Positions 12,885 to 51,852 of a stretch of DNA of 64,000 nucleotides are shown piece after piece. The DNA is taken from assembly GCA_035524375.1 (NCBI GenBank), contig DATKOZ010000033.1, positions 26,842 through 90,841 on the forward strand, read 5' to 3'. Numbering within the stretch: position 1 is the first letter of the stretch; every line of letters starts with the position of its first letter. The DNA is from Candidatus Binataceae bacterium (GTDB taxonomy: Bacteria; Desulfobacterota; Binatia; Binatales; Binataceae). Position numbers and translations under genes: made by a program. The notes under the pieces were generated by a model, which saw only the letters and a program-made list of their open reading frames with translations, ran no database searches and had not been told where the DNA came from.

Positions 12885-13140
12885 GATTAAAGCCCCACTC
12901 TAGCAGGGTTTTCAGTCCGTTCCGAATTGGCGCGTATCCCAAATCGTCTAATCCCCAGGACAGAATGAGGAGCCGCATATGGAAAACGAACGAAAAATGC
13001 CCAGTAGAACAGGCCTCAAGAATGCAATAGATTGCGTGGTAGCGATGGCATGCGGGTTGCTGTGGTGGGTAGGTGTAAGAGCAGCCTCGGATGCGACTGC
13101 GGATCGGCGGATTTAGGCGGGGAAGAGTCGGGATCGGGAT

Positions 13141-32602: not shown

Positions 32603-32733
32603 TTAGCCGTTCTTAGCTCACCCCTTTCCCCTTCTGAGACCATACCTTCGGGGGGCTTGGACGCGCGAGCGGCGCGATTGAACGGCCGTGCTGGGAGACC
32701 TCGTGCAAATTGCCGTCGATGAAGGTTGATGTG

Positions 32734-35700
32734 ATGAAGAGTACTGAAGGACGGGTCCGGCTTGGAACGATCGCGATCTTTAGCGCGGTCGCAATGGTCA
32801 TATTTGCTACCGCGATTCTGACTACACCGCGCGCCCAGCAGAATGCAGTCGCGGCCGCGTCAGCAACCCCTAGTTTGCCTTTTAGACCGTTTCTGCCGCC
32901 CGCAATCGCTCCCGACGGGTCAGCCCGAGTCACAACTAGCACAACCGCCAGCGCCAATATCGTATTAAATTTTCCAACTTCCGTGACTGCGGGCGATATT
33001 TGTGTCGCGGGTATCAATTTCAGTTCGTCCAGCGGTGCCGGCAACACCCGCACGGTGAATACTGTTCCTACTGGATGGACTCTGGTCCGGACCGATACCG
33101 CCACCGGTACGAATAATGGCACCAATGCCAACCAGCAGGGCTTCATTTACTGGTATAAGAACGGCGGCGCGAGCGGGACCGAGGGAGGCACAACGGCCAC
33201 TTGGGTATTGAATGCGAATTACGCCGATTTGGTCGGATGGATCCAATGCTTCAAAGGAGTCGATGCCAACGTGCCGATCGATTCGCTGAATCCAACCGGA
33301 AGCGGCGTCAACGGCGGCAGCGCCAACGTCGGAACTGTCACCGTTCCAGCGCTGGGTACGCTAAACCGCGCCGGTGACACCGTTATCCTGAACTGCTCGA
33401 TCGCCAACGGAGCCGGCACATACACAAGCCCGGCGATTCCGGTAGGTGTGTTTACGACGCAGAGCGTCGGCACGGCCGGAGCCGGAATCGTAGCGGGTAC
33501 GCACGCTGACGCCGCCGCATATACGGGAGTTGATGCGACCACGACCGCTCCCGCCGCACAGGCGTGCACCAACAATGGCACCAACGGCAGAATGGTCGGC
33601 GAACAGATCGCCCTGCAGCCGTCGGTTACGCCCGGAGCTTGCACTGCGCTCAACTACGGCGACTTCAGTTCCACCTCGGGGCTAACCTTGCTCGGCAGCA
33701 CGATCCAGAACGGCAATGCGCTGGAGTTGACGCCGGCCAGCGGCAACCAGCTAGGGGCACTATGGGGCTCCAGTCAAATCGATGTTGCGGACGGATTTAT
33801 CGCGAGTTTCGCATTTTCACTCACTAATCCCTCGACCCCTCCGGCCGACGGCATCACTTTCACGATTCAGAACGAGGCTCTGACCGCGATCGGCGATACT
33901 TTGGCCGGCGGCGGCGGCATCGGTTATAACGATATAACCGACGCACTCACCGTCGAGTTCGATGTATTCAATAACGGCGTGGGCGGAACTTGCCCCACTT
34001 GCTATAACGACCCCAACGCAAATCACATCGCAGTACAAAGTTGCGGCACCGCCGCCAACGGGCCAAACCCGGCCTGCCAACTGGGCATTCAGGCGACGCT
34101 GCCCAATACGATGTCGGACGGCGCCGTGCATACCGCCACGATCGTATACGATCCGGGCACGTTGGAAATCTATTATGACAACGGCGCAACGCCGGTACTT
34201 CAGGTGCCGGTTGATTTGGCAACCCTCCTGAGTTTGACCGGTGGCAACTCGGCGTGGGTTGGATTCACTTCTTCGACCGGTGGGTCGTTTGAACAGACCA
34301 ATCTGTTCAATTTCTTTGCTGCCCAGGGACAGGAATGCGCCACTCCGACTCCGACGGCAACTTCGACTACAACGTTGACACCGTCGATTACACGGACTCC
34401 AACCACTACAGCGACGGCTTCTGCAACACGGACGCCGACCGCGACAATCACCCGGACGCCGACGGCTACCGTTTCGCCAACGACCACGGCAACCAGGACC
34501 GCGACGCTTTCTCCGACTTCCACAGTCACCGCCACATCGACGCTTACGCGGACAGCCACATCAACGGCTACTGCGACTTCGACCGCTACAGTGACCGCAA
34601 CTCTATCGCCGACCATTACTACTACGGCGACAATTTCGCCGACCTCAAGTATCACCGCGACTTCGACCACGACCGCGACGCCAACAGCCACTTCAACATC
34701 GACGCCGCTGGTAAACATTTCGGTTACGCCGACGCCCGTCGCTTTCCCAACGGTAACGATTGGCACTCCGCAGTCTCAGTTCGTTGTCATTACGAATTCC
34801 GATCCTACGAATCCGCTTGTCTTTAGTTCTTTCAATACGACTGACACGACCGCGACCGGAAGTACGCCAAACGAATGGAGCGTGACCGGAGCCGTCGATG
34901 GCGCCATCCCGGCATGTGTTGCGGGAACACCTGTGCCGCCGGGAACTTCCTGCGCTCTGCAGGTTACGCTGTCTCCAAACGCAGCCAACGGAGATGACGT
35001 CACGGTTACCGGTAATCTGACGCTGAACGGCAACATCTCGCCGGGCGGCTCAACCACAATTTCGCTGCATGGGACTGGGCAATGGGCCAACGTCAGCGCG
35101 ACCGCCTCGCCCACGCCGCTCGCGTTCGGAACGGTTCAGGTTGGGACTCCTCAGACTAAGACTTTGACCATCACCAACACCGACGCCACCAATCCGCTCT
35201 ACATCACCTCGCTGGGCGCATCCGACACCACTGCCGGCTACTCTGGCCCCGATGAGTTCTCAATTGTCGGTGGAACTTGCAGTGCGGCGACCGATGGGTC
35301 CAATCCGGTGGCTCCGGGCGGCTCATGCACAGTAGTCGTGCAGCTAGCACCGAATGCCGCCAACGGCGACGGGGTGGGCGTCACAGGCCAACTAGCGGTG
35401 AATGGCAACCTGACGGGCGGACCGTTGGATGTCTCAATGACGGGAACCGGCCAGTGGCCTTCAGTCGCCGCGACCGCCTCGCCTACACCGATCGCATTCG
35501 GAACTGTGCAGGTTGGGACTCCGCAGACTAAGACCCTGACCATCACGAATACCGACGCAACCAATCCGCTCTACATCACATCGCTGGGAGCATCGGATAC
35601 GACCGCCGGCTACACCGGTCCCAATGAATTTTCGATCGTGGGCGGTACCTGCACGGCGGCAACCAACGGTTCCAATCCGGTACCTCCGGGCGGCTCGTGC

Positions 35701-37413
35701 ACGGTGATCGCGCAACTCTCGCCCAATACGGTCAATGGCAATGGCGCAAGCATTACCGGCCAGTTGTCCGTGAACGGGAATCTGACCGGCGGACCGCTCA
35801 ATGTGGCGATGACCGGAACCGGCCAATGGCCCAATACCACCGTATCGCCCAGTTCCAATCCGTTGAACATTGGAACGGTTTTCGTCGGAACTACGGGAAC
35901 CGGCATACTGACGATTACGAACACCGGAACAAATCCGCTGTTCATCACGAGCACCGGAACTACCGACACCACCAGTGGCTATACTGGAACCAACGAGTGG
36001 GGAGTGACCAGCGGAGGAATTAATCCGTGCCCCGTGGCTCCTGCCAGCATTCCCCCGGGAAGCTCTTGTACTCTCGTCGTGAGCTTGGATCCATCGGTAT
36101 CGAACGGCGACAACACGACCATCACCGGAACCCTCACCATAGGTGATAATACGACCGGCGGAACGACGACGGTCAACCTGACGGGGACCGGCGAATGGCC
36201 GCAGGTCGTCGCATCTCCATCTCCTACTCCGCTCGCCTTCGGCGCAGTAAACGTCGGGGCTCCAGTGACTAAAACACTGACGATCAAAAATGAAGATGCT
36301 ACCAACCCGCTATACCTCACCTCGATAACGCCTACCGATACCACCGCTGGCTACACGGGTCCGGATGAATTCTCCGTCACCGGAGGCACCTGTAGCACTG
36401 CCACCGATGGCTCCAATCCGCTTGCTCCGGGAGCCTCCTGCACGGTTCAGGTGACGCTGTCTCCTCAACCGATCAATGGCAATGGGACGAGCATCACCGG
36501 CCAGTTGTCGATAAATGGCAACATCACCGGCGGGCCCCTGAACGTATCCATGACTGGGACCGGCACCGGCATAACGACTGTAAGCGTGAGCCCGGCTTCG
36601 TGCTTTGCGGGCGCCGTGGTGGAGGGAAACACGTCAACGTTCTGCGTATTCACGGTGAGCAACACCGGCTTTGTGAATCATATGCTCGTGAGCAACATTG
36701 CCCTCGACGACTCGCTGGATTCCGGGGTGTTCTTCACCGATTGCCAGGCGCCGGGCGGAACCCCCGCACAGTCGCAATGCTCAATCAATGTGGCGTTCAC
36801 TCCACAGACCCTTGGGCCGTACACGATCCACATGAATATCACCGATAACGCGTTGTCCAGTCCGCAAACAGTGACAGTAACGGGGACTGGAACGATGCCC
36901 CCAAACACCACCGACACGCTGCTGCCGAATCCCTTGGACTTCGGCGGCGCGCCGGTAGCGCAGCCGACGGAGGCATTCCTGACAGTAACCAACACCGGAT
37001 TTACCAATCCGTTGGTGCTGCAGACGTTGAACGTTACGGACACGACGCCGGGTTACACGGGCGCCAATGAATTTGCATTGGTGCCTGCGGATTCGAACTG
37101 TCCGACTGCGCCCGCGGGGCTGGGACCAGGCGCAAGCTGCATATTGGCAATTAACCTGACTTCGGATGCGTCAAACGTTGACCAGACGATCACCGGAACG
37201 CTGACGGTGACTGACAACACGGCTGGTAGTCCGCAGACGGTGAGCCTGACCGGGTACGGAGTGTCGGGGATAACACCGGATGGAGATTGCTACACCGCTT
37301 CGAGCGGGGCGTGCGATTCGACGCAATCCAATCCGGGCTTCTCCGGCCAGTCGTGCCTGATAGACTCCGGAACCTGCACGAATACTGGAGGCCCAGGGTG
37401 CCAGTGCCAGTAA
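32734..37413 (+). CDS. Giant secreted surface protein / putative lectin adhesin: signal peptide, N-terminal region of unknown fold, legume-lectin-like domain, Thr/Ala/Ser-rich linker, 7 tandem Ig-like (choice-of-anchor-D type) repeats, Cys-rich C-terminus
   Basis: Start chosen at ATG 32734 (MKSTEGRVRLGTIAIFSAVAMVIFATAIL).
- Lectin_legB-like motifs: ASFAFSL...DGITFTIQNE, LTVEFDVFNNG, NHIAVQS, AWVGFTSSTGG.
- A ~115-residue Thr/Ala/Ser-rich linker (TPTPTATSTTTLTPSITRTPTTTATA...TSTSTP).
- Repeats with the motif ...FG.V.VG....K.LTI.N....PL.I.S.......F.....C......PG.SC...V.L.P...G.
- C-terminal GDCYTASSGACDSTQSNPGFSGQSCLIDSGTCTNTGGPGCQCQ. Confidence 0.85.
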   Translation: MKSTEGRVRLGTIAIFSAVAMVIFATAILTTPRAQQNAVAAASATPSLPFRPFLPPAIAPDGSARVTTSTTASANIVLNFPTSVTAGDICVAGINFSSSSGAGNTRTVNTVPTGWTLVRTDTATGTNNGTNANQQGFIYWYKNGGASGTEGGTTATWVLNANYADLVGWIQCFKGVDANVPIDSLNPTGSGVNGGSANVGTVTVPALGTLNRAGDTVILNCSIANGAGTYTSPAIPVGVFTTQSVGTAGAGIVAGTHADAAAYTGVDATTTAPAAQACTNNGTNGRMVGEQIALQPSVTPGACTALNYGDFSSTSGLTLLGSTIQNGNALELTPASGNQLGALWGSSQIDVADGFIASFAFSLTNPSTPPADGITFTIQNEALTAIGDTLAGGGGIGYNDITDALTVEFDVFNNGVGGTCPTCYNDPNANHIAVQSCGTAANGPNPACQLGIQATLPNTMSDGAVHTATIVYDPGTLEIYYDNGATPVLQVPVDLATLLSLTGGNSAWVGFTSSTGGSFEQTNLFNFFAAQGQECATPTPTATSTTTLTPSITRTPTTTATASATRTPTATITRTPTATVSPTTTATRTATLSPTSTVTATSTLTRTATSTATATSTATVTATLSPTITTTATISPTSSITATSTTTATPTATSTSTPLVNISVTPTPVAFPTVTIGTPQSQFVVITNSDPTNPLVFSSFNTTDTTATGSTPNEWSVTGAVDGAIPACVAGTPVPPGTSCALQVTLSPNAANGDDVTVTGNLTLNGNISPGGSTTISLHGTGQWANVSATASPTPLAFGTVQVGTPQTKTLTITNTDATNPLYITSLGASDTTAGYSGPDEFSIVGGTCSAATDGSNPVAPGGSCTVVVQLAPNAANGDGVGVTGQLAVNGNLTGGPLDVSMTGTGQWPSVAATASPTPIAFGTVQVGTPQTKTLTITNTDATNPLYITSLGASDTTAGYTGPNEFSIVGGTCTAATNGSNPVPPGGSCTVIAQLSPNTVNGNGASITGQLSVNGNLTGGPLNVAMTGTGQWPNTTVSPSSNPLNIGTVFVGTTGTGILTITNTGTNPLFITSTGTTDTTSGYTGTNEWGVTSGGINPCPVAPASIPPGSSCTLVVSLDPSVSNGDNTTITGTLTIGDNTTGGTTTVNLTGTGEWPQVVASPSPTPLAFGAVNVGAPVTKTLTIKNEDATNPLYLTSITPTDTTAGYTGPDEFSVTGGTCSTATDGSNPLAPGASCTVQVTLSPQPINGNGTSITGQLSINGNITGGPLNVSMTGTGTGITTVSVSPASCFAGAVVEGNTSTFCVFTVSNTGFVNHMLVSNIALDDSLDSGVFFTDCQAPGGTPAQSQCSINVAFTPQTLGPYTIHMNITDNALSSPQTVTVTGTGTMPPNTTDTLLPNPLDFGGAPVAQPTEAFLTVTNTGFTNPLVLQTLNVTDTTPGYTGANEFALVPADSNCPTAPAGLGPGASCILAINLTSDASNVDQTITGTLTVTDNTAGSPQTVSLTGYGVSGITPDGDCYTASSGACDSTQSNPGFSGQSCLIDSGTCTNTGGPGCQCQ
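34711..37260 (+). repeat. Seven tandem ~360-370-bp coding repeats inside the giant gene; units 2 and 3 (35086-35457, 35458-35829) are roughly 85% identical at nucleotide level (by-eye estimate)
   Basis: Unit boundaries are approximate: 34711, 35086, 35458, 35830, 36202, 36571, 36895. Long identical runs are shared by units 2 and 3 (ccgctctacatcac, ggttgggactcc.cagactaag). Confidence 0.7.
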
Positions 37414-37782: not shown

Positions 37783-38418
37783 TCAGCGCTTACGCTGATA
37801 CATTCGCCAGATTCTAACGCCTTGAGGAAAGAGTTCGCCAATCACTTCGTAGCCGTGCGCGCTGTAAAAGGCGACATTCGCTTCGGTCGCAGTCTCAAGA
37901 TATACACCGGCAACATCCGTTCGGATGGCGGCCTCAAGACGTAGCCGTTCGAGCAGCGCCTTGCCGTAGTGCTTTTTCTGGAAATCCGGATCGACCCCGA
38001 GCGCTTGCAGATACAGGTGCGGCTCCTTGGGATGATTTCGTGCCAGCACGTCCATCATGTTAAATCCGCGCAACATTCCACCCCACCCCGCCGCCCGCAG
38101 CATTCGCGGCAGCTGACCGATGCCGGTGACCATCATGCTTAATACTGAAACAATCGAAGTACCCTCGGTTGCCGCGACTCCGACCACTTGGCCATTGTCG
38201 ACCACTCCAAACACGGGCTGCCCATGATGCCGCTCCACCGCCAACATCGCGCGGAATATTTCCGCAAGCAGACGGGCCCGAATAACGGGATCGGCTACCT
38301 CTCGCACCACCGGCTTGAATGACGGATCGTTAATGAACGCTCGTCCGAGCGCGACCGCCGCCTGCTCGTGCTGCTCCGGGTACAATATCGTAACGGTGGG
38401 CTTGCCGTTGTCAGCCAT
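37783..38418 (-). CDS. GNAT-family N-acetyltransferase
   Basis: Start MADNGKPTVTILYPEQHE; acetyl-CoA binding-like region QVVGVAATEG...GIGQLP. Its start overlaps the glpK stop by 8 nt (operon). Confidence 0.65.
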   Translation of the reverse strand: MADNGKPTVTILYPEQHEQAAVALGRAFINDPSFKPVVREVADPVIRARLLAEIFRAMLAVERHHGQPVFGVVDNGQVVGVAATEGTSIVSVLSMMVTGIGQLPRMLRAAGWGGMLRGFNMMDVLARNHPKEPHLYLQALGVDPDFQKKHYGKALLERLRLEAAIRTDVAGVYLETATEANVAFYSAHGYEVIGELFPQGVRIWRMYQRKR

Positions 38419-39922
38419 TTGAGTCTCCAGTAGAGGCGGATGGCGCGGTTCGCACACGCGCAACCGCATCATGCCATCCGGCTATCAGTCGCGCACGCTC
38501 AGCGACGGACATCTTCGGTTTAAATAACTTTGCGGTTCCCTTGAGCGCCGCGGCCTCGTCCATCGACTTCCACATTCCGACAGCCATCCCCGCCAGTATC
38601 GCGGCACCCATCGCGGTGGTTTCCGCCATCTTTGCGGGCCGCACCGGTTTCCCCAAGATATCGGCCTGAAATTGCATCAGGTAGCGATTGGCGGTAGCGC
38701 CGCCATCGGCGCGTAATTCCGCGAGCGCATGGCCGGTGTCAGATTCCATTGCCGCGATCACGTCGCGCACCTGATATGCGATGCTATCAATTGTCGCGCG
38801 CACCAAGTCAGCGCGGGTGGTACCTCGTGTAATCCCAAAAATTCCGCCCCGCGCTCCACTGTCCCAATATGGCGCACCAAGACCTACAAATGCCGGAACG
38901 ACATAGGGCGCGGAATTGTCTTTGCTGCCACGCGCCAACGCTTCCGAATCGCCCGCCTTCTTAATCAGCCCCAGCCCGTCGCGCAGCCATTGAACAGCCG
39001 CACCGGCCACAAAGACCGACCCCTCCAAAGCATAGGCCGGCTCCCCCTGCTTACCCAACGCTGCGGTCGTAAGCAGCCGGTTTTTCGACGGTACGATTTC
39101 TTTGCCGGTGTTCATTAGCAGGAAGGCGCCGGTACCATAGGTTGCCTTGGAATCGCCCGCAGCAGTGGCGCCCTGCCCGAACAATGCGGACTGCTGATCT
39201 CCTATCACCGACGCGATCGGAATCGCTCGCGGCCCGACGGTTCCTGGAGCGGCCTCGGCAAGCGGCCCGCGCGAACTGACCGCGGCCGGCATCATGCTGT
39301 CTGGAACCTCCAGCATTGCAAGCATCTCGTCGTCCCATTCCAGACGCGCGAGATTGAACATCATCGTGCGCGATGCATTCGTAAAATCGGTGACAAACCC
39401 GCTACCGCGTGACAACTTGAAGATCAGCCAGGTGTCGATAGTACCGAAGCATAGCTCCCTGCGGGCGCCGCGTCCGCGTAGTTCCGGGTTCTCGTCAAGG
39501 AGCCATTTGAGCTTGGTGCCGGAAAAATAAGGGTCGAGCAGTAGCCCGGTGCGGCGCGAGACTTCGCTTTCGCGCTCGCGAAGTGCGTTGCAGATTTCGG
39601 CGCTCCGGCGGCATTGCCATACAATCGCGCGATGGAGCGGGCGGCCAGTGCGTCGCTCCCAGACCACGAATGTTTCGCGCTGATTCGTAATTCCGATCCC
39701 GCGCAGGTCGGTCGGTGCGAGCCGGGCGTCTTTAATTGCCTTCTTCGCCAGTGTCACGGCGGACCGGTAGATTTCCTCCGGATCGTGCTCGACCCATCCT
39801 GCTCTGGGGTAGAACTGCCGAATCTCGCCGTACGCGCGGCCCAATATGCGCCCGCGACCGTCCACGACGAACACAGTGGTGCCGGTGGTCCCTTGATCGA
39901 TCGCTAATACGGCTTGGGCCAT
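38411..39922 (-). CDS. glpK: Glycerol kinase
   Basis: MAQAVLAIDQGTTGTTVFVVD, FGTIDTWLIFKLS, and the second FGGY signature GGATANRYLMQFQADILGKPV. Confidence 0.9.
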   Translation of the reverse strand: MAQAVLAIDQGTTGTTVFVVDGRGRILGRAYGEIRQFYPRAGWVEHDPEEIYRSAVTLAKKAIKDARLAPTDLRGIGITNQRETFVVWERRTGRPLHRAIVWQCRRSAEICNALRERESEVSRRTGLLLDPYFSGTKLKWLLDENPELRGRGARRELCFGTIDTWLIFKLSRGSGFVTDFTNASRTMMFNLARLEWDDEMLAMLEVPDSMMPAAVSSRGPLAEAAPGTVGPRAIPIASVIGDQQSALFGQGATAAGDSKATYGTGAFLLMNTGKEIVPSKNRLLTTAALGKQGEPAYALEGSVFVAGAAVQWLRDGLGLIKKAGDSEALARGSKDNSAPYVVPAFVGLGAPYWDSGARGGIFGITRGTTRADLVRATIDSIAYQVRDVIAAMESDTGHALAELRADGGATANRYLMQFQADILGKPVRPAKMAETTAMGAAILAGMAVGMWKSMDEAAALKGTAKLFKPKMSVAERARLIAGWHDAVARVRTAPSASTGDSNG

Positions 39923-40085
39923 TTTCCGTGCGGTGATTATCCGCCGTGGGCATCCTATTGTGCATTGGCAGGCCCGACAACTCTTTTCGGCAAATTTGAG
40001 GCAACATTCGAGACTTGCCTCGAATTTTGTCCAAGGTCATTATAGGCGGACTCGCCGATCCACCTCTGTTCAGGAGCCTCACCCA

Positions 40086-41450
40086 TTGAGCGAACTGGTT
40101 GAAAAGAAAGAGGATTTGATCCGCTACTTCGAGGCCGGCTCAAAGCCTCGATCGGCGTGGCGCATTGGCTCGGAGTTCGAAAAAGTGTTGGTCCGCGCCG
40201 AAGACGGCCGCGCCCTGCCCTTCTCCGGCCCATGCGGCGTCGAAGAGCTTCTGCGCCGGATGGCCGAACATTACGGCTTGGAGCCGGAGATCGAACACGG
40301 CCGAATCCTTGCGCTTGCCGGTCCGCATGGCGCGATTACTCTGGAGCCGGGCGGACAAATTGAGTTGTCAGGGTCGCAATGCGAGACGATCCATGAGGCC
40401 TACGCTGAGTTTCTGAGCCACGCGCGACAAGTCATCGATGTCGGCGCCGAAATCGGCGCCAAGGTACTTGGGTTGGGAATGCAGCCAATCAGCCGCATCG
40501 ATGAAATCGAGCTTCTTCCCAAGGCCCGCTACCACATCATGTACCCATACATGGCCCGCAAGGGGACTCTGGGGCAGCGGATGATGAAGCAGACGGCGGG
40601 AGTGCAGGCCAACTTGGATTACTCTGACGAGGCTGACGCAATGCGTAAGGTTCGCACCAGCATGGGTTTGGTGCCGATCCTCCACGCGATTTTTGCGAAT
40701 TCACCGCTGAGCGATGGCGGCCTTAACGGGTATCAAAGTTTCCGCGGCCATATCTGGACTGATACCGATCCCGATCGGTGCGGCATCCTCGAGTTTATAT
40801 TCCGTGGCGGCTGCTCATTCGAAGATTACGCCGAGTATGCGCTCGACGTTCCGATGTATTTTCTCATCCGCGATCACGAATATATCGACCTCACGCGTAC
40901 CCCCGGAATTACATTCCGCCAGTTCATGGAGCGCGGATTCGGCGCGGAGCGCGCGACCTTGGATGACTGGAGCAATCATCTCACAACCATATTCACTGAA
41001 GTGCGATTAAAGAGCTACCTTGAGGTTCGCACCCCTGATAGCCAGCCGCCGGCCCTGATGCTGGCACTGCCCGCACTTCTCAAAGGGGTGCTATATGACG
41101 ACGATTGCCTGACTGGCGCGTGGGATCTCGTCAAGCAATTGAGCTTCAGTGACCGTCTGGAGTTGGCCGACGCTGCGCAGAAATTCGGCCTCGATGCACG
41201 AGCGGGCAAGGTCCGTCTGCAAGAGCTGGCCAACGAGCTTTTGTCAATAGCGGCGCACGGCCTCACCCGGCAGAGGGCGTTGAACAATCGGGGCCGGGAT
41301 GAGACCATTTACTTGTCACGTTTGATGGAAATGATCCGCAGCGGAGACAATTTGGCCCGATGGACGATCGACCGCTGGAAAGGCGCTTGGAATTCCGACG
41401 TAAAACGGCTGATCGAAGCTATGGCCTATCAAATTGAGGCGATCGAGTAG
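40086..41450 (+). CDS. gshA: Glutamate--cysteine ligase, plant/alpha-proteobacterial type (GshA family 2, GCS2)
   Basis: TTG 40086 preceded by AGGAG (40072-40076). The LSELVEKKEDLIRYFEAGSKPRSAWRIGSEFEKVLV...GGQIELSGSQ...ANLDYSDEADA...TEVRLKSYLEVR pattern matches plant-type GCL. The track ORF (39933) has a ~50-aa N-terminal over-extension. Confidence 0.8.
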   Translation: MSELVEKKEDLIRYFEAGSKPRSAWRIGSEFEKVLVRAEDGRALPFSGPCGVEELLRRMAEHYGLEPEIEHGRILALAGPHGAITLEPGGQIELSGSQCETIHEAYAEFLSHARQVIDVGAEIGAKVLGLGMQPISRIDEIELLPKARYHIMYPYMARKGTLGQRMMKQTAGVQANLDYSDEADAMRKVRTSMGLVPILHAIFANSPLSDGGLNGYQSFRGHIWTDTDPDRCGILEFIFRGGCSFEDYAEYALDVPMYFLIRDHEYIDLTRTPGITFRQFMERGFGAERATLDDWSNHLTTIFTEVRLKSYLEVRTPDSQPPALMLALPALLKGVLYDDDCLTGAWDLVKQLSFSDRLELADAAQKFGLDARAGKVRLQELANELLSIAAHGLTRQRALNNRGRDETIYLSRLMEMIRSGDNLARWTIDRWKGAWNSDVKRLIEAMAYQIEAIE

Positions 41451-42449
41451 ATGGAATTTCGGCTGACACAACGCCACTTTATGGCAGCCAACATCCTCCT
41501 TGGCGCGGCGCTCTTTTACGTCGCATGGCTGTGCTTCTTGGATATTCGTAACTTTACGCCGACCGGCGAGATTAACCCAAAGCACGTCTCGCAGCGTGCC
41601 GGCGCCACCGAGGCCGGCGAGCGAACCCGCGCCACTTACGATGAAATCGTCAAGCGCGATATTTTCAATCTCGTCCCGCTGGCTCCGGCGGCGGCTCCGC
41701 CGGTAGTAGACGAAGATTTGCACTTGGTGCTGATTGGCACGTCCCAACTGACGGCATCCAAGCCGTACGCAATCATCGAGGCTGAAGGCACCAATTCCCA
41801 AGTTCTGTATCGAATCGGCGACCAAGTCGAAAGTGCCGGCACGCTCGCCGCGATTGAGCATAGCCGGGTGTTAATCGATCACAATGGTCACCGGGTTGCG
41901 TTGGAGCTTCCAAAAGAAGAATTGTCCTCTACTGAACCGTCAGGTCTGTCTTCGGGAGCATCAGAAGCCCCACCCCGTCCCGCACCACACCCGCTAGCCG
42001 ACAAAGAACGATTGAAGCGGCGCCTGCGCAGCCGTCACCACCACCGGGGTGACGATTCGGGCGAGCCGGAAGGTGATGCGGCATCGCCTCGCGAACGCCT
42101 GGGAATGATCGCTCCACCCAGCTTTGGACCGGCGACCGGCGGATCGGGGCACTCGAAGTTCCCTGCGTCAAACTTGTCTCCAGAAAAACTCTCCTCGCAA
42201 ATCCACGTGGATCCGCACATGGTCGGTGGCAAAGTTGAAGGATATTCGGTTTCCCAAGTCAGCGCAGATTCGGTCTTCGATAAACTAGGCCTGAAGGTTG
42301 GAGACACAATCACTGCGCTTGATGGGCAACCGGTTACAAATCCTGCCCAAGGAATCATTTTCCTTCAGTCGATCCCTAATCGTTCGGCAATCGACATGAC
42401 GGTTACCCGCAACGGTTTTCCGATCCAGCTTCACCTCACTCTGCGCTAG
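41451..42449 (+). CDS. GspC-like protein: N-terminal TM anchor, secretin-interacting 'HR'-like region, low-complexity linker, C-terminal PDZ domain
   Basis: TM: ILLGAALFYVAWLCFL. HR-like: LHLVLIGTSQLTASKPYAIIEAEGTNSQVLYRIGDQVESAGTLAAIEHSRVLIDHNGHRVALEL. PDZ: GGKVEGYSVSQVSADSVFDKLGLKVGDTITALDGQPVTNPAQGIIFLQSI. The start abuts the gshA stop. Confidence 0.6.
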   Translation: MEFRLTQRHFMAANILLGAALFYVAWLCFLDIRNFTPTGEINPKHVSQRAGATEAGERTRATYDEIVKRDIFNLVPLAPAAAPPVVDEDLHLVLIGTSQLTASKPYAIIEAEGTNSQVLYRIGDQVESAGTLAAIEHSRVLIDHNGHRVALELPKEELSSTEPSGLSSGASEAPPRPAPHPLADKERLKRRLRSRHHHRGDDSGEPEGDAASPRERLGMIAPPSFGPATGGSGHSKFPASNLSPEKLSSQIHVDPHMVGGKVEGYSVSQVSADSVFDKLGLKVGDTITALDGQPVTNPAQGIIFLQSIPNRSAIDMTVTRNGFPIQLHLTLR

Positions 42450-42451
42450 TT

Positions 42452-43516
42452 ATGGAATATCGAGCCGCGCGTCCCAGCGAGCGTGACGAGGTCCTGGACC
42501 TACTTTCGCTGTGGTACGGCGATCGGGAGTTTTTTGCCCGCTACAACCAAAATGACCCGAGCTATCGGGACAATTTCTGCCTGATCGCTCGTGACGGTGG
42601 CCAACTGGCGTCAACTGTTCAAATTTTCGACCGTAAGATCAACCTGGCGGGTCAAGCTGTTCCGATGGGCGGAATTGGTTCGGTCTTCACGCGCGAGGAT
42701 TATCGGCACAAAGGCGTTGCGTCCGAACTCATGCGGCTTGCGGTCGAGACGATGCGTAATGCGAGTTTTGAAGTTTCGCTGCTGTTCGCCGAGCGGATCA
42801 CGTTTTACAACCAATTCGGATGGCGCGAAGTCGAACGCAAAATCAGTATGCTTCCCGGCACGGAGAGGCTTTCAGCTCCCGGTAATTACCTCATTGATGT
42901 CTTTGATCCTGAACGCGACCTTACGGAGGTGGATTCCATCCACCGCGGATACAGCGGCCGGTTCAATTTGACCGCGGCGCGCGACCCCGCCGCATGGAGC
43001 GGCAGCCTCAAATTCTCCGCTAATCAGCCACTCCATCACGGCGAGGCTTCTGACGAATACTTCATTCTGTGCCGCAATGAAAAACGGATCGTAGCTTATG
43101 CTCGCGTGATGCGCTTGTACGGAGTTCCCGGCGTCATGGAATTTGGCTATGTTCCCGGCGCGAGATCCGCATTACTTTCGATATTCAAATATCTTGGTGA
43201 AGTAGCTGCCGGCCGGGCGCCGTCGTTCAAGACCGCCGGCAATCATTCGCGGGCCGCGATGCTGATGCCGGCCCGGGGAACCGCTCCCGCCGGAATTATC
43301 GCGTCGCATACCGCGCACGATCCCGATCTGGAGCGCCAATTCGCCGCCGCCGGATCTCAAGTGTCGTATTACACGGACAATAATTTCATGTGGACAGTGC
43401 TCGCGCCCGAAAAGCTGGCGAAGCGCTTGAATGTCTCTCCGGAATCGGCCACCGCCCGCGCATTCAAGATATTTTCCGACCCCGGTTCAGTTTATTGGAT
43501 GTCGGACCGATTCTAG
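42452..43516 (+). CDS. GNAT-family acetyltransferase with a ~200-aa C-terminal extension (Eis-like architecture)
   Basis: GNAT core: QAVPMGGIGSVFTREDYRHKGVASELMRLAVETMRNASFEVSLLFAERITFYNQFGW. The C-terminal region is of unknown fold. Confidence 0.65.
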   Translation: MEYRAARPSERDEVLDLLSLWYGDREFFARYNQNDPSYRDNFCLIARDGGQLASTVQIFDRKINLAGQAVPMGGIGSVFTREDYRHKGVASELMRLAVETMRNASFEVSLLFAERITFYNQFGWREVERKISMLPGTERLSAPGNYLIDVFDPERDLTEVDSIHRGYSGRFNLTAARDPAAWSGSLKFSANQPLHHGEASDEYFILCRNEKRIVAYARVMRLYGVPGVMEFGYVPGARSALLSIFKYLGEVAAGRAPSFKTAGNHSRAAMLMPARGTAPAGIIASHTAHDPDLERQFAAAGSQVSYYTDNNFMWTVLAPEKLAKRLNVSPESATARAFKIFSDPGSVYWMSDRF

Positions 43517-43518
43517 TT

Positions 43519-44439
43519 ATGCGCAATCGAATTGTAATCATCGCAGCGGCACTGGTGGCCATTTGGTTTGGAAGCGTCCTGGCACTCCATTTCGGCCAAA
43601 AGCATCACGACAATCTCGGCTACGATATCGACGAGCACTTTCCGCCCGGCAAACCGGTTGTGCCCGGTGAAATCTTCGCCTCCACACTGGCCGCAATCAT
43701 GGATCATGAGCTCCACACCGGTTTTGGATGGCGTCCGAATGATTTTTTCCTGTGGGGACCTGCGATTGGTCCGGACAATAATGCGAATCGGCAATTGGGA
43801 ATCATTATGGCGGTCCGCGAAACCACCCGCGTTTTCAAAGACGATCTCACGAAGGTGTCGTCGAATCAGTACGACAAAAATCTGGTAATCGCCGATACCG
43901 ATTTCCGCAACGACGCTGAGAAGTGGGTCCTGCCCGCACCGGAAGGCAAGTACGACGATGGCGTTCAGCATCTCCAACTGTATGCTCAAGGCCTTCATAC
44001 CAGCCCGGAATCATCCCGCGAACTAAATGTGCGCGCAGTCGAACTGGTGCGGCTGTTTCAGGCGTGGACCGACCTTTTAGGGGACGCTCACGCCAACCTG
44101 TACCGAACTACAAAAGATGACGGTTCGCCGATTCGATGGTGGAGCAGCGCGCGTGACTTTTATCACGCGCAGGGCTACGCGCACGTGATGTATCACATGA
44201 TGATCGCGCTAAAGCGGGAATATGCCGAAGTGATCAAAAGCGATCCGACGCTGGCGACCTTGTTCGACGACACTATCGACGCGCTCGGCAAGGCCGCAGT
44301 CCTCAAGCCGCTGGTGATTATGAATGGCTCTCCGGACGGCTTGTTCGCAAACCATCGCCGCAACTTGGACGGCTACATCACCGAAGCCCGCCAGAAAATG
44401 TATTCGATTCGCGAAGAATTGCAGCGATCGCCACTCTAA
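43519..44439 (+). CDS. Membrane-anchored hypothetical protein (single N-terminal TM; possibly DUF2333-like)
   Basis: MRNRIVIIAAALVAIWFGSVLALHF then a ~280-aa soluble domain. Fourth gene of the tightly spaced gshA run (3-nt gaps). Confidence 0.5.
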   Translation: MRNRIVIIAAALVAIWFGSVLALHFGQKHHDNLGYDIDEHFPPGKPVVPGEIFASTLAAIMDHELHTGFGWRPNDFFLWGPAIGPDNNANRQLGIIMAVRETTRVFKDDLTKVSSNQYDKNLVIADTDFRNDAEKWVLPAPEGKYDDGVQHLQLYAQGLHTSPESSRELNVRAVELVRLFQAWTDLLGDAHANLYRTTKDDGSPIRWWSSARDFYHAQGYAHVMYHMMIALKREYAEVIKSDPTLATLFDDTIDALGKAAVLKPLVIMNGSPDGLFANHRRNLDGYITEARQKMYSIREELQRSPL

Positions 44440-44445
44440 CCGGGG

Positions 44446-46296
44446 CTACAGATCGAACCAGGGGCAAAGGAGCATGATCCCTCCCCGCACGGCTAACTCA
44501 GCCATCGCTGGAGCCCATCGTGCTGGAATCCCCAGCAATTCAGCAAGTGTACGCATCGGCCACGTCGGCCCGGCGGGCATGATGCCCAAGGGCAGTCCCA
44601 ACAACCGCCGTTCATGATGGTAGGTCACCAACTCGTGCCGCCGATCATCGGGAATATTTGCCCGCCGGCGTGCAAGCCGGATTGCCGCATCCATGCCACC
44701 GATTTCGTCGACCAAGCCGTTCTCACGCGCCGCTATTCCGCTCCAGATTCGCCCTCGCGCAAGCTCCTCGGTTCGTTCGGGCAAGAGATGCCGCCCTTGG
44801 GCTACCTTTGCCGTGAAATTGCCGTAGAGGTGCCCCAGCGTGTCATTCACCTGCGTCAGCTCGGCCTCGGTCAACGGACGCGTAATCGACATCGAGTCGC
44901 TGTTCTCGGCCGTCTTTACGTACTCGATGCGAACGCCGAGTTCGTCGAGAACCCGGGCAAAATTGAATTTCGCGTAAACGACTCCGATTGAACCCGTAAC
45001 CGTAGCAGCCTCGGCGACGATCGCATCCGCCCCGGCTGCGACGTAATAGCCCCCCGACCCCGCAACGTCACCCATTGAAACCACCACTGGCTTGCCGCGA
45101 TGCTGAGCTTCACGCACAGCGCGCCACACGAGATCGGAGCCGACCGCCGAACCTCCTGGCGAATTGACGCGAAATACGATTGCCTTTATCCGCTCATCGC
45201 GGGAGGCGCGCTCGAATTGCAAAGCGGTTGCCGGTCCGCTGACGAACTCGCCGGCGGCAGGGGCGTTTCCTCCAATAATTGGGCCGCACGCGTGAATCAA
45301 AGCAATCTTTGCCGGTCGTCCAGGCGCCCGAGGAAGGGCCGCGTGACGGCAATAGCGGCCTATGCTGACAAATGGATGGCCCTTGCCTTCCGAATCCAGG
45401 TCCGCGTGGATATCTTCGATATAGCCTTCGCGATCTACCAGTCCATGGTCCACACCGAACTTGGCGGTAACAAATCCCGATGCCAGTAGCTCGCGAATCC
45501 GCGCTGGATCGATCTTGCGGGCCGAGGAAATCGCTTCGATAATGATTTTTTCCCAGTCGCCAACCACCGCCGCGATACTTTCGCGCAGCACCGGTGACAT
45601 CGTATCCCGGCTAAGCGTTTCCCCCGCACCCTTGTATTCCTTCCACTGCAGGGTTTGAGCCTGCACTTTCAGTTTGTCCAGCACGGACTTGAGAAAAACG
45701 CCCCGAGTGGCAATGCCGTGCAATGCGAGCGTCGTATCCGGGTTGATTACAATCTCACCCGCACCCGCCGCAGCCAGATACTCTCCTAATGCGGCTGTGT
45801 CGCCGCGTAGGAGCGCAATCACTCGCTTGCCGGCCGTCTGCACCGCGCGCAGGCCGCGGTAAATCTCATGCGCAGTCGCAATTCCAGTCTCGAGCCCCGC
45901 AATCTGAACGACGACCGCCCGTATCTGTGGGTCGGTGGCGGCCGCGTCAAGCGCATAGCGGACTTGATCGAGGCTGAGCGGGCCTCGGCGCAGGAGCTGC
46001 TCCAGCGGCGAGCGCCGGGGTGCTTCCTGGATCGGCCCGGTCAATTTGAATGCCAGTACGGCGTCGTGCGGGATGTGCGCCGGCCGCAATACGAAGAACC
46101 AGAACGCCGCCGAAAGCGCCCCAGCAATCCCAATCAGTTCGATTCCGGTCGACCAGTTCTCGCTGGCGCATTCTACGGCGCCGGCGGCGCACAAGAGTGC
46201 GACCACGATGGCCAAGCGTGCTTCCCGGCTTATCCACAAGCGATCCGGAACAGTTATCTTCATCGATTCGGCAGTCGCCTTTTTCGTCGGCTCCAT
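44446..46296 (-). CDS. sppA: Signal peptide peptidase SppA (protease IV, 67K type, tandem ClpP/crotonase-like domains)
   Basis: 616 aa. N-terminal TM, two S49 domains (AVVVQIAGLETG...; GKPVVVSMGDVAGSGGYYVAAGAD with catalytic Ser), and the Lys dyad region. Confidence 0.85.
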   Translation of the reverse strand: MEPTKKATAESMKITVPDRLWISREARLAIVVALLCAAGAVECASENWSTGIELIGIAGALSAAFWFFVLRPAHIPHDAVLAFKLTGPIQEAPRRSPLEQLLRRGPLSLDQVRYALDAAATDPQIRAVVVQIAGLETGIATAHEIYRGLRAVQTAGKRVIALLRGDTAALGEYLAAAGAGEIVINPDTTLALHGIATRGVFLKSVLDKLKVQAQTLQWKEYKGAGETLSRDTMSPVLRESIAAVVGDWEKIIIEAISSARKIDPARIRELLASGFVTAKFGVDHGLVDREGYIEDIHADLDSEGKGHPFVSIGRYCRHAALPRAPGRPAKIALIHACGPIIGGNAPAAGEFVSGPATALQFERASRDERIKAIVFRVNSPGGSAVGSDLVWRAVREAQHRGKPVVVSMGDVAGSGGYYVAAGADAIVAEAATVTGSIGVVYAKFNFARVLDELGVRIEYVKTAENSDSMSITRPLTEAELTQVNDTLGHLYGNFTAKVAQGRHLLPERTEELARGRIWSGIAARENGLVDEIGGMDAAIRLARRRANIPDDRRHELVTYHHERRLLGLPLGIMPAGPTWPMRTLAELLGIPARWAPAMAELAVRGGIMLLCPWFDL

Positions 46297-46314
46297 CTAC
46301 ACTATCGAATTTCG

Positions 46315-47652
46315 ATGGCAAAGTCTGCCTTAAATTTCGCGCTGGGATTGGCGCTCTTAGGCGCCGCAGCGTGTTCCACCGGGAAGCCCACGGCAACCCC
46401 CCTCCGGCCCTATATGGGTCGCGCAGCGACGCTCGATTTTGCCAGCAATATGAACGTGATTTCCGTGATGTCGCTGCCAAAGGGATTTGCTCCGATTGCG
46501 GACCGGCCGCCAATGTGGGTTCAGAACGGCGAAGAAATTGCCGTCGCTGGCATTCAAGATGGCCACTCAGTGGTCTATGGCTTGAGTGGCGCCGGATGGA
46601 AAACCGGGCGAGTATTGGCCGCGGAGAGCGGCCCGGCTGCTGCTGTTCCCGGTTCGCTGGTCGACGCCGCCTCCAGCCCGGACGGGTTCGCTCTTGCGAC
46701 CGCCGTGGTATCGCCCGACGGCAATCAACTGGATATCGTCGTCCGTGACTTGATAGCCAACGGAGCCGGCCATTCGGTCGCCGTATTTGACGGCAGCTTC
46801 GATTCGATTTCAATCGCTTGGCTGAACTCAGCAACTATCGCCGTGGCGCTACGCCGCCATCCTGATTCCACCCCTAACGCGAATGGCGCCGGTCCGGACG
46901 GCCTTCAGCTGGTGGTCCTTTCCGGAGCCGGCTCGGCGGCGCCTATCACGCTCACTTGCCCAATGTCGCGGCTGTCGTGGAGCCCGCATGGAATTTATGC
47001 CGTTGGCGAGGGAGATGCGGGAGCCCCGCCGATTCTGATCGACCGGCGAACCTCAGCCTGCAAGCCATTTCATACGAACCGGCCGATTCGCGTGCTTGAT
47101 TGGGATTTGGCCGATGAAGGAACTTTTCTCTACGCCGGAACCGATGTCGCCAATCGTGTAGTCAGCGTCTACAAATACAACATCGCCACCGGCACTGAAA
47201 ATCTGATGGGCCTGTCATCGGCCGCCGCGGCCTTCACCAGCGGAGGCCAGGTCTTAATCTTGGGCAACCAAAAGCTAAATTTTCGCGTAGCCACCGAGCG
47301 CCCTACACAACCGCTAACCGCACAAATCGCGCTGGCCCGCTCCGATCAAAGCGAAATCGACATAAAATCGCTTGCTTTTCAAACCACGCCCGCGATGCTG
47401 GATCAGAGCTCGATTGCATATTCCAAGCAGGCGGATGAGGCCGCAATCCAAACCTTCTCGCCAAGCGTGCCGATCCCATGGCGTAAAATAATCAACTATT
47501 CGATGACCAGCGGCACCGCCTACATGGTCGGAACCGGCCCCGCGAGCGGAACCGTCACGATGGCATGGTCGCCAAAGGGACGCTGGCTGGCGGTTCTGGA
47601 TGGTGACGCTGCGTCAGGCACCGCAATGGCGATTCTCGCGCCGCCTCGATAA
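46315..47652 (+). CDS. Secreted/lipoprotein with PD40 (TolB-like) beta-propeller repeats
   Basis: Start MAKSALNFALGLALLGAAACSTG. Repeated SPDG/SPHG/SPKG motifs (SPDGFALA, SPDGNQLDI, SPHGIYAV, SPKGRWLAV). The track ORF start (45868) overlaps sppA in antisense, so it is trimmed to the first ATG after sppA. Confidence 0.55.
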   Translation: MAKSALNFALGLALLGAAACSTGKPTATPLRPYMGRAATLDFASNMNVISVMSLPKGFAPIADRPPMWVQNGEEIAVAGIQDGHSVVYGLSGAGWKTGRVLAAESGPAAAVPGSLVDAASSPDGFALATAVVSPDGNQLDIVVRDLIANGAGHSVAVFDGSFDSISIAWLNSATIAVALRRHPDSTPNANGAGPDGLQLVVLSGAGSAAPITLTCPMSRLSWSPHGIYAVGEGDAGAPPILIDRRTSACKPFHTNRPIRVLDWDLADEGTFLYAGTDVANRVVSVYKYNIATGTENLMGLSSAAAAFTSGGQVLILGNQKLNFRVATERPTQPLTAQIALARSDQSEIDIKSLAFQTTPAMLDQSSIAYSKQADEAAIQTFSPSVPIPWRKIINYSMTSGTAYMVGTGPASGTVTMAWSPKGRWLAVLDGDAASGTAMAILAPPR

Positions 47653-49995: not shown

Positions 49996-51285
49996 TTAAT
50001 GCGTCAAGCGCAGCAGAATCTTGGAGGCGATTAACAAAAATGCGTTGTTAAGATCCGCTGAGGTTTGCGCCAAGATTGCCGCCCCTTGGGGTAGATTCGG
50101 GTTGTAGCTGGGGCTGGCAGGATCGTTGGCAATTTCTTGCAGGTAGGTCATATCCACCTTATCGCCCATGCCTAGAGCGTAAATCTCGACTCCAGGATTC
50201 TCCTCCTGCATCGACAGCGCCACTTGCTCAGCACGATATTTTGCTTCATTAGACACGTTGGTATTATTCTGAGTCATCGTCGGCGGTGACAATTGCGAAG
50301 GGAAGGTGGTCGGTGGGCAACTGCTGCATGCATTGCTGCTGCAGGTGCTGTCCGAGCTCCCCGGCATTGCACAGAAGCTATTAGCCCCGTGACACCAGCC
50401 GACAGCCGCTTCCGGAGGTGCGCAGCCGCCGTAAATTGTGAGGTGACTGCCGGAACTACCACTGCAGCCACCTCCCGACTTACAGGTCAAGGTGTCCTCG
50501 ATCATGTTGGCCCAGCCGTCGGTGAAAAAAACCGCAACCCGCACTGTGTTCTGTCCAGCTGGAATCGCAATAGTATTAATTTGAGTTTGCCCAGCCGCCA
50601 GTGCAGCTTCCGCGAACGTTCCACCCTGGAATGATATCGAGCCAACGTTTGAGATGATGGCTGATTTGAAGGGCTGGGTCATGGCCACGCCGGTGGTTGC
50701 GACCGTCCCAAAATGAATTTCGGCCACGTGATCCTGCGTATCGTCGAAATAGTTGATGAAACTATCAACTGCGGGAGGAAGCGCCGTGGAGCCTCCGTTC
50801 CTTGTCATCGATGCCGAATTATCCAGGACCAGCGACATGACCAGCTTGGCGCGGGTGGCTTGGGCGCTCCCGCTGACCGATACCTGATTAAATTGGTTAA
50901 AAATTGCAAGAAAGAACGGGTTGACGGTAACTGTGCCGCTGACATTGACCAGTTTGTTGCCGTTGGAATCTGTTCCAACCGAGAATGAAAAAGTCGGGGT
51001 AATGCTGTTATTAGTAAATTGCGAGGTCGAGCTCATGTTCAAGGTGTAGGCCGTCTGAGCAAGACTTTGCGCGGTGGAATTGCCCTGATAAAGATTGCGC
51101 ATCCCTTCCAGCGCCGCGGCATCTAGCGCCCGGGATAACGCCGACTGCTCGACATAGATCATGCCAAAGTCGATCGCCATGCCGGCAAAAACGATAAGGA
51201 CCGGAATCATGAGCGCCAGCATCACTAGGATCTGGCCGGGTTTGCTCTCTTTAATCTTTTGCTTCCAGCGAGCCGACATAATCAT
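49996..51285 (-). CDS. TadG-like pseudopilin with C-terminal von Willebrand factor A domain
   Basis: Tad N-terminus: GQILVMLALMIPVLIVFAGMAIDFG. vWA MIDAS-like: VMSLVLDNSASM ... VFFTDGWAN. Confidence 0.7.
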   Translation of the reverse strand: MIMSARWKQKIKESKPGQILVMLALMIPVLIVFAGMAIDFGMIYVEQSALSRALDAAALEGMRNLYQGNSTAQSLAQTAYTLNMSSTSQFTNNSITPTFSFSVGTDSNGNKLVNVSGTVTVNPFFLAIFNQFNQVSVSGSAQATRAKLVMSLVLDNSASMTRNGGSTALPPAVDSFINYFDDTQDHVAEIHFGTVATTGVAMTQPFKSAIISNVGSISFQGGTFAEAALAAGQTQINTIAIPAGQNTVRVAVFFTDGWANMIEDTLTCKSGGGCSGSSGSHLTIYGGCAPPEAAVGWCHGANSFCAMPGSSDSTCSSNACSSCPPTTFPSQLSPPTMTQNNTNVSNEAKYRAEQVALSMQEENPGVEIYALGMGDKVDMTYLQEIANDPASPSYNPNLPQGAAILAQTSADLNNAFLLIASKILLRLTH

Positions 51286-51292
51286 ACCCCTC

Positions 51293-51838
51293 CTAGAAAT
51301 ACGCCGCCTGATACATCTGCGTTGGCATCACAATATTTAGCATGGTGCCGATTGGCGTGATTGGCGTGAACTGGTAGCACACTTCGGTAATGTAAACCGT
51401 CATTCCCGAATTGAGTAGAGTAGCCGCGTTGGTTGGAACTGTCGCACTGGACCCGACGCCAGTGCCGACATGGCTCGTGCAATGATAGCCGCCGCCAGAG
51501 GCTTGGGCGGTGATCTTGTTCGAGTTCGAAATCTGCTGCACCGTCGTTAAAATAACGCCGCCATAGTGGGCCATATCCAACGGCGCACCACCGGAAACCA
51601 AAGCGGTGGCCGCAGTTGCAACGTCCGTCCCGCGGCACGTGATGCTGGAGCCCTCGCGGCTCAAACCAACCATCTCCTGTTCGTAATTCAGCGCCCGGCC
51701 GAACTCAATCAATCCGCACATCAGGCTCAGAAGAATCATCACGACCATCGCGAATTCAACCGCAGCTTGGCCGGATGACTGCGTCCGCGTTCTAATCCTA
51801 ACTCCATCTCGACGTTTTGAAGCCATAGTACTCTCCAA
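51293..51838 (-). CDS. TadE-like pseudopilin
   Basis: QAAVEFAMVVMILLSLMCGLIEFGRAL, the TadE N-terminal helix. Confidence 0.65.
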   Translation of the reverse strand: MESTMASKRRDGVRIRTRTQSSGQAAVEFAMVVMILLSLMCGLIEFGRALNYEQEMVGLSREGSSITCRGTDVATAATALVSGGAPLDMAHYGGVILTTVQQISNSNKITAQASGGGYHCTSHVGTGVGSSATVPTNAATLLNSGMTVYITEVCYQFTPITPIGTMLNIVMPTQMYQAAYF

Positions 51839-51852
51839 GCTTGGCCGCCCCG

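Follow-up and report, generated by a model that had tools for sequence, protein, structure and literature searches.

A predicted gshA-led transcription unit of the Binataceae with a constant GspC-like partner and an optional Eis-type acetyltransferase

In the genome assembly of a Candidatus Binataceae bacterium (GCA_035524375.1), a stretch of 64,000 nucleotides (nt) from contig DATKOZ010000033.1 (positions 26,842 to 90,841; hereafter the window, meaning the whole stretch analysed) carries on its + strand a tight run of four genes. These are gshA, a gene for a protein resembling GspC of the type II secretion system (T2SS), a gene for a tandem GNAT N-acetyltransferase of the Eis type, and a gene for a membrane protein of the family DUF2333. 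Comparison with related loci indicates that the first two genes are always found together, that the third is frequent and dispensable, and that the fourth adjoins the others only in a small sub-clade. Given this pattern we lean, with confidence only a little better than even, towards reading the run as a Binataceae-specific mixed operon that heads an envelope/secretion neighbourhood rather than as a single (thiol) pathway. The run had been singled out by a prediction made from the DNA letters (the original prediction), whose assignment of the genes as a plant-type gshA, a GspC-like PDZ protein, an Eis-like GNAT, and a membrane protein is borne out by family and fold searches.

All four open reading frames (ORFs) are confirmed. 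gshA (40086-41450) begins with TTG and encodes a 454 amino acid (aa) glutamate-cysteine ligase (GCL) of the plant/alphaproteobacterial type. The GspC-like gene (41451-42449) encodes 332 aa, with a predicted N-terminal transmembrane segment, an HR (T2SSC) domain, a linker, and a C-terminal PDZ domain; the GNAT gene (42452-43516) encodes 354 aa; and the DUF2333 gene (43519-44439) encodes 306 aa, predicted to form one N-terminal transmembrane helix and an all-helical domain. The gshA start has an AGGAG 8-9 nt 5' of the TTG and agrees with the N-termini of homologues. The DUF2333 frame is open from 43390, and its homologues all begin at the ATG at 43519. Spacers of 0, 2, and 2 nt separate the genes (TAG directly followed by ATG at the first junction, TAG-tt-ATG at the second and third), in keeping with the 0-3 nt originally claimed. 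The sequence TAGTTATG is identical at the GspC-like/GNAT (42447-42454) and GNAT/DUF2333 (43514-43521) junctions, although the latter junction is specific to the sub-clade.

Inside the run, a generic scan detects no + strand terminator-like or promoter-like site, and an Rfam scan of 39500-44800 returns no element at E ≤ 1. The generic scan also reports no + strand promoter ahead of the run; a conserved element emerged solely from the alignment of 34 orthologous glpK-gshA intergenic regions, in which CTTGC.TC and GCCAT.ATA are kept in at least 80% of the sequences. In the window this element is a sigma-70-like promoter 5' of gshA (40015-40043, + strand), with the -35 sequence TTGCCT at 40015-40020, a 17-nt spacer, and the -10 sequence CATTAT at 40038-40043. 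(The generic scan missed it because only 8 of the 12 positions match.) Because tight junctions recur in dozens of relatives, so that the arrangement is not peculiar to this genome, and because a conserved -35/-10 pair lies upstream of gshA, the four genes are almost certainly co-transcribed, as had been predicted.

The extent of conservation has been assessed by tblastn in 86 related Binataceae loci, six of them found through GNAT homologues (L001-L003 and L073-L075) and 80, from metagenomes, through an alignment of gshA. A GspC-like gene follows gshA in 79 of the 79 loci in which any part of it is visible. The gap between the two is at most 70 nt in 69 of these, most often 5-12 nt between tblastn ends, and five loci have an insert of 0.74-1.5 kb. 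In L084 (7393-8097) the insert is a 234-aa signal peptidase I-like gene with SMEPT and GDNRDDSWDSRFWG motifs; L081, L097, and L109 have inserts of the same size (741-745 nt).

The GNAT is less constant. Of the 54 loci that are informative for it (at least 1.3 kb of sequence beyond the GspC-like gene), 33 have it adjacent, nine have it displaced by 0.4-2.8 kb, and 12 lack it, and the loci that have no GNAT fall at three or more separate places in a neighbour-joining tree of gshA. Individual loci illustrate how the run has been altered: in L001 the GNAT is displaced by an IS110 insertion, the transposase (6496-7686) lying between it and the GspC-like gene; in L118 a two-gene operon (gshA plus the GspC-like gene) precedes convergent genes; and L143 has gshA, the GspC-like gene, a DUF2333 remnant, and the gene for the signal peptide peptidase SppA, an order that constitutes a deletion scar. 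Elsewhere, L002 carries an MvaI/BcnI restriction gene and an HNH gene between glpK and gshA (2397-5472), and L074 carries CTD7, MC3, and LmuB_C (Lamassu-like) genes after the GNAT (9407-13070), so that mobile or defence islands break the syntenic block at differing points in L001, L002, and L074. From the conservation counts, the conserved transcription unit therefore consists of the promoter, gshA, the GspC-like gene, and usually the GNAT.

DUF2333 joins this unit only rarely. It adjoins the GNAT in 3 of 30 loci, namely the window and its closest relatives L002 and L003, where the gap is 8 nt; in the other 27, 1.3-3.1 kb intervenes, containing a gene for a PBP5-type D,D-carboxypeptidase and sometimes a fatty-acid desaturase gene. 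Both the PBP5 and the desaturase genes are absent from the whole 64-kb window. The tight four-gene run of the window is a derived state of one sub-clade, for it lacks the PBP5 gene that as a rule stands between the GNAT and DUF2333, accompanied in some of the family by the desaturase gene. Consequently, the expectation that relatives keep the four-gene arrangement stands for the gshA/GspC-like pair and falls for the GNAT, missing from more than a fifth of the informative loci, and for the adjacency of DUF2333.

On sequence grounds, the first protein is a plant-type GCL. It matches GCS2 (PF04107) with 217 bits and TIGR01436 with 461 bits (E = 3e-138, model positions 2-444 of 446), which is 2 bits short of the 463.15-bit cut-off of that model, and it aligns end-to-end with the Brassica GCL structures 2GWC and 6GMO (E = 1.5e-98, query residues 8-447 with chain residues 15-445). 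The gene product is 68-75% identical across the 80 metagenome loci, and mean column identity within the family is 82%. Beside it the GspC-like protein evolves fast, with 29-62% identity over the best tblastn segment. Matches to T2SSC (PF11356; 41 bits, residues 52-152) and PDZ_6 (34 bits, residues 267-320), each with a gathering score of 27, together with a hydrophobic segment at residues 11-30, define its predicted topology; its scores lie below the NCBIfam cut-offs for GspC itself (NF041515, GspC_delta, 91.1 versus 150 bits; TIGR01713, 71.7 versus 101.6 bits). A conservation profile of 70 orthologues shows conserved HR and PDZ regions joined by a variable, charged/Pro-rich linker, and no conserved Cys or redox motif in the periplasmic part. 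The gene tables of L001-L003 and L073-L075, like the large ORFs of the window (Pfam), contain no Gsp families. The window also has, some 5 kb away from the operon, a Tad/Flp pilus locus with TadE/TadG-like pseudopilin genes, one of which has a VWA domain (49996-52473, - strand); among the candidate partners of an HR-domain protein there could be a Tad secretin.

The fourth protein matches PF10095 with 100.6 bits in two stretches (gathering score 22) and is 75-80% identical across the Binataceae. Its AlphaFold2 model is helical (predicted TM-score 0.70); it has no PDB sequence match, and the model has no significant PDB fold match (best E-value 0.68). To our knowledge, a function is known for no DUF2333 member, and the literature searched holds one incidental mention of the family, with no functional lead.

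The GNAT matches Acetyltransf_9 (PF13527) with 90.3 bits over residues 2-125, and a Pfam scan at E ≤ 0.01 returns GNAT-domain families only, with no Eis central-domain or SCP2-type C-terminal family and nothing beyond GNAT families in the C-terminal two thirds. Its best PDB relatives by phmmer are 3n7z, 2i00, 4my0, and Eis2. In Foldseek, its structural model matches Eis-family chains with probability 1.0 over ~330 columns, at TM-scores of 0.29-0.37 and with a mean model confidence (pLDDT) of 69.6; structural alignments give 13-16% identity to the solved members. Within the acetyl-CoA motif R85-H-x-G88-x-A90, which lies in the N-terminal domain, R85, H86, G88, A90, and the following S91 are invariant. 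Y119 is invariant as well, and the last residue, F354 of the C-terminal D-R-F354, is kept without exception in 18 sequences from Binataceae and 12 distant ones; the motif, Y119, and F354 hold even in homologues 35% identical to the first sequence of the alignment. In Mycobacterium tuberculosis Eis, activity is confined to the N-terminal GNAT domain, the C-terminal carboxylate of Phe402 serving as a remote base and a Tyr as the general acid (PMC8556138). Judged by its residues, the GNAT of the window appears to use this Eis mechanism. Known Eis substrates are polycationic amines or lysines, and gamma-glutamylcysteine (gamma-Glu-Cys), the product of GCL, is an acidic dipeptide. By analogy, then, a cationic amine or lysine is the more likely substrate.

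Insight into the GNAT also comes from its relatives outside the Binataceae. An exhaustive search of representatives yields full-length homologues that are 34-40% identical and have the same W-x-[AS]-D-R-F end. A genome scan seeded with five distant homologues (a mixed alignment of Binataceae and distant sequences was too divergent to serve as seed) finds 69 loci, mostly in metagenome-assembled genomes of Myxococcota/'Deltaproteobacteria' and in Acidobacteriota (Thermoanaerobaculia, Ca. Multivorans, Holophagales, and Vicinamibacteraceae), with a few labelled Bacteroidetes or Ignavibacteriales. The encoded proteins are 22-56% identical to the Myxococcota-type query and 25-42% identical to the GNAT of the window over the best tblastn segment, except for a short 54% segment in L068. 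The GNAT belongs to a subfamily of its own, marked by the W-x-[AS]-D-R-F C-terminus and found in Binataceae, Myxococcota, and Acidobacteriota, and should be filed as a distinct Eis-type subfamily.

Within 8 kb of the GNAT at these 69 loci, searches with tblastn and with hidden Markov models (HMMs) built from the Binataceae proteins find no gshA, GspC-like gene, or DUF2333. Its neighbours in one group of loci are an O-methyltransferase, a metallophosphoesterase, a zinc-dependent alcohol dehydrogenase, and Ppx, and in the other a PIN protein, a BNR protein, and an SSF symporter. (These neighbours were picked by longest-ORF calling and single-linkage clustering, a noisy procedure that admits antisense ORFs in high-GC DNA and chained clusters, such as one uniting SppA matches with a Ppx/GppA protein; the test of linkage rests on the tblastn and HMM searches, not on this clustering.) Six Myxococcota-type loci (L017, L019, L020, L021, L025, and L066) have, on the strand of the GNAT and ~4-5 kb downstream of it, a homologue of SppA with 30-34% identity, which recalls the closeness of the GNAT and SppA in Binataceae. 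This proximity was considered as a linkage and judged too loose and too lineage-restricted; it may be due to chance. Because the GNAT is dispensable to the gshA/GspC-like unit and its relatives occur elsewhere without gshA, the evidence does not favour a functional module of four genes, and we infer that these share no pathway.

Taken together, these comparisons suggest how a mixed operon of this kind might work. From the sigma-70-like promoter, gshA, the GspC-like gene, and in most cases the GNAT would be expressed on a single, translationally coupled transcript, which in the sub-clade of the window would also include DUF2333. GshA would supply gamma-Glu-Cys for an ordinary thiol pool of the glutathione (GSH) type, a GSH-type glutaredoxin being encoded in synteny nearby. 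The GspC-like protein, encoded away from any gsp cluster, would be anchored in the inner membrane and would place its HR and PDZ domains in the periplasm; within the T2SS, the component with this transmembrane-HR-PDZ architecture couples the inner-membrane platform to the secretin. In the cytoplasm, the GNAT would act as an acetyl-CoA-dependent amine N-acetyltransferase, with an active N-terminal domain, a Tyr as general acid, and the carboxylate of the C-terminal Phe as remote base, and the DUF2333 protein would be a membrane-anchored helical protein. The genes downstream of gshA would then largely serve the envelope or secretion (LepB in some lineages, the GspC-like gene, PBP5, sometimes the desaturase, DUF2333, and the convergent SppA), with gshA as the odd one at their head. 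The signal peptidase I-like gene, SppA, and PBP5 in particular give the neighbourhood its secretion/envelope theme. If, as the comparative data suggest, the run is no more than a lineage-specific combination of housekeeping with envelope genes, its importance is chiefly one of annotation, and it ought not to be interpreted as a thiol pathway. The proteins are all new members of known families, and the gene pairing, unreported in the literature searched, is without demonstrated meaning.

Several points weigh against the mixed-operon reading. As the original prediction had stated, the window has no gshB: none appears in the Pfam survey of its large ORFs, and a tblastn search with E. coli GshB against the window and the 86 related loci gives only noise. 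With no gshB in these 795 kb around gshA, the end product may be GSH, gamma-Glu-Cys, or a derivative. In addition, 96 of 108 Binatota genomes carry mscR/fadH according to Murphy et al. (2021), who also report mshABC homologues, and frmA without frmB, and leave mshD unmentioned (PMC8262859 Text S1); mscR/fadH is annotated there as a mycothiol-type formaldehyde dehydrogenase (PMC8262859). A mycothiol-type dehydrogenase and mshABC without mention of mshD leave room for unusual thiol chemistry, and the identity of the major thiol is a point of mild interest in the uncultured Binatia, where msh-like genes have been reported, where gshA is of the plant type and a glutaredoxin is present, and where no gshB is seen in the vicinity of gshA. 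The structural model of the GNAT is of only modest confidence. The GspC-like protein, with no T2SS genes seen at these loci, has no evident partner. Furthermore, the gshA loci all come from one family (gshA 68-75% identical), so that part of the shared gene order may be inherited synteny. Finally, the universal, coupled pairing of gshA with the GspC-like gene is unexplained and could reflect a real functional link.

That last point underlies the alternative that survives best, which we regard as possible but rather unlikely. Here the real unit would be gshA plus the GspC-like gene, thiol synthesis being coupled to a periplasmic HR-PDZ protein (for example, through a demand for thiol export linked to envelope stress or secretion, or through stoichiometric co-production by translational coupling), and the GNAT and DUF2333 would be passengers. 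The pairing is seen in every visible locus, mostly at 5-12 nt, even in lineages that have lost everything downstream; it has outlasted the fast divergence of the GspC-like protein beside the more slowly changing gshA; and the link to the promoter is retained where a signal peptidase I gene has been inserted between the two. However, with a single bacterial family as the sample, inheritance may account for the gene order, no conserved Cys or redox motif is present in the periplasmic part of the GspC-like protein, and five loci tolerate an insertion of 0.74-1.5 kb between the genes. The literature searched contains no precedent or relevant paper for gshA with GspC, and nothing useful on Binatia secretion systems. 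That a glutamate-cysteine ligase should be paired invariably, and with translational coupling, with a GspC-like periplasmic protein, an association that has no such precedent, is mildly interesting in itself.

The reading advanced by the original prediction we consider improbable. By analogy with MshD, the Eis-like GNAT would N-acetylate gamma-Glu-Cys or a Cys derivative to give a low-molecular-weight thiol, which the envelope proteins would handle or use; if true, this would be a previously undescribed thiol in a Gram-negative soil phylum. A version fitted to the family, in which the Binataceae, having no gshA-linked gshB, use the GNAT to N-acetylate gamma-Glu-Cys or a Cys conjugate, and lineages that have no GNAT have reverted to gamma-Glu-Cys or GSH, seems to us just as improbable. 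In its favour, gshA and the GNAT share one operon in 33 of the 54 informative loci and are near each other in nine more, gshA has no linked gshB, the GNAT is a tandem GNAT with the MshD structure 2c27 among its fold matches (E = 2e-7, rank 46), and mscR/fadH and mshABC, with mshD unmentioned, have been reported from Binatota. However, the GNAT is absent from 12 of the 54 gshA/GspC-like loci, in at least three lineages, and gshA is not near the GNAT at any of the 69 homologous loci from other phyla. Its sequence and fold are of the Eis type, with the acetyl-CoA motif in the N-terminal domain and a C-terminal Phe, rather than of the MshD type, and the NCBIfam search yields no match to the MshD model. 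The cationic nature of Eis substrates as opposed to the acidic gamma-Glu-Cys, and the presence of a GSH-type glutaredoxin, also speak against it, and it leaves the GspC-like protein, whose gene is the truly conserved companion of gshA, without a role. An MshD analogue had been considered in view of the mshABC report and was rejected as the leading explanation on the grounds of domain and motif. Thus, given the losses of the GNAT, its unlinked homologues elsewhere, and its Eis features, the new-thiol reading finds no positive comparative support.

The weakest alternative, in which the GCS2 protein would be a diverged carboxylate-amine ligase rather than a bona fide GCL and would build some other acylated or ligated small molecule with the GNAT, might appeal to the 2-bit shortfall against TIGR01436 and to the breadth of a GCS2 family that also takes in YbdK and EgtA types, but is highly improbable in view of the end-to-end alignments to that model and to the plant GCL crystal structures, the scores far below cut-off for EgtA (153 versus 370.8 bits) and YbdK (20-43 bits), and the uniformity of the family itself.

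The genes that surround the run are in part conserved with it. SppA (44446-46296, - strand) is convergent, 6 nt from the DUF2333 stop, with a Peptidase_S49 match of 224 bits and a TIGR00705 score of 310.7 bits against a cut-off of 311.45; it adjoins DUF2333 in related loci and is a conserved syntenic neighbour. After it, throughout the Binataceae, comes a conserved protein of ~456 aa (46282-47652, + strand, in the window; 13252-14628 in L073), 44% identical between these two loci, with a lipoprotein-like N-terminus (MAKSALNFALGLALLGAAAC) and no Pfam family. On the other side, divergent from gshA, lies the glycerol kinase gene glpK (38411-39922, - strand), another conserved syntenic neighbour, with FGGY_N and FGGY_C domains in the syntenic genes and 62-78% tblastn identity in related loci. 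Downstream of glpK is a small single-domain GNAT (37783-38472, - strand; Acetyltransf_7 and Acetyltransf_1), which is likewise syntenic in L002, L073-L075, and many metagenome loci. Further away, an 89-aa glutaredoxin (30708-30977, + strand) has a CPFC active site and TVPxxF and GGxDE motifs; it is 76% identical by tblastn to the glutaredoxin of L073, which lies ~5 kb upstream of gshA there, and is syntenic with it, Glutaredoxin Pfam matches being found in both L073 and L074. Its presence suggests that a GSH-type thiol is in use. Between the glutaredoxin and the small GNAT/glpK pair, the window has a 1567-aa ORF (32710-37413, + strand) that is not seen at this position in L073 and L074. Probably a large repeat protein of the surface or a secreted one, its product combines a hydrophobic segment at the N-terminus with long linkers rich in Thr, Ser, Pro, and Ala and with tandem repeats, at least five in number and ~115-130 aa each (containing ...TPLAFGTVQVGTPQTKTLTITNTDATNPLYITS...). 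The Pfam survey of the large ORFs of the window also recovers Tad pseudopilins, a cytochrome bd oxidase, and UvrA/UvrB, among others.

Each protein of the run can be set beside a better-known relative. The gshA product resembles the Brassica juncea GCL (TIGR01436; 2GWC) in its full-length collinear match and its ~450-aa length class; it differs from the plant/alphaproteobacterial type in scoring 2 bits under the trusted cut-off, in having no linked gshB, and in being encoded at the head of an operon shared with a GspC-like gene in all the Binataceae loci seen. The GspC-like protein has the same four-part layout as GspC of the T2SS (N-terminal transmembrane segment, HR, variable linker, and C-terminal PDZ), and both evolve fast, but it is coupled to gshA, scores under the GspC cut-offs, and has no gspD-gspM in the 64-kb window or the related loci. 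The fourth protein shares its PF10095 match and N-terminal membrane anchor with the DUF2333 proteins of Pseudomonas, Vibrio, and Rhodobacteraceae, whose genes have other neighbours: in P. fluorescens, an amidase and a NUDIX hydrolase, and on the other (Vibrio and Rhodobacteraceae) replicons, ECF (extracytoplasmic function) sigma/anti-sigma genes or a GTPase, all unrelated to those of the window.

For the GNAT, two comparisons can be made. With MshD (2C27) it shares a tandem GNAT fold, a thiol-biosynthesis gene close by, and a distant fold match; however, the C-terminal domain is the active one in MshD, whereas the GNAT carries its conserved acetyl-CoA motif in the N-terminal domain, and 2c27 ranks far below the structures of the Eis type. 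The Eis family (M. tuberculosis Eis, M. abscessus Eis2, Bacillus anthracis 3N7Z, and Enterococcus faecalis 2I00) provides the closer parallel. Although the GNAT, at 354 aa, is ~50 residues shorter than the ~400 aa of that family, it has the same Acetyltransf_9 N-terminal GNAT domain and acetyl-CoA motif, a Tyr at the general-acid position, and a second GNAT-like domain, and its invariant C-terminal Phe would be the counterpart of Phe402, whose carboxylate is the remote base of the M. tuberculosis enzyme.

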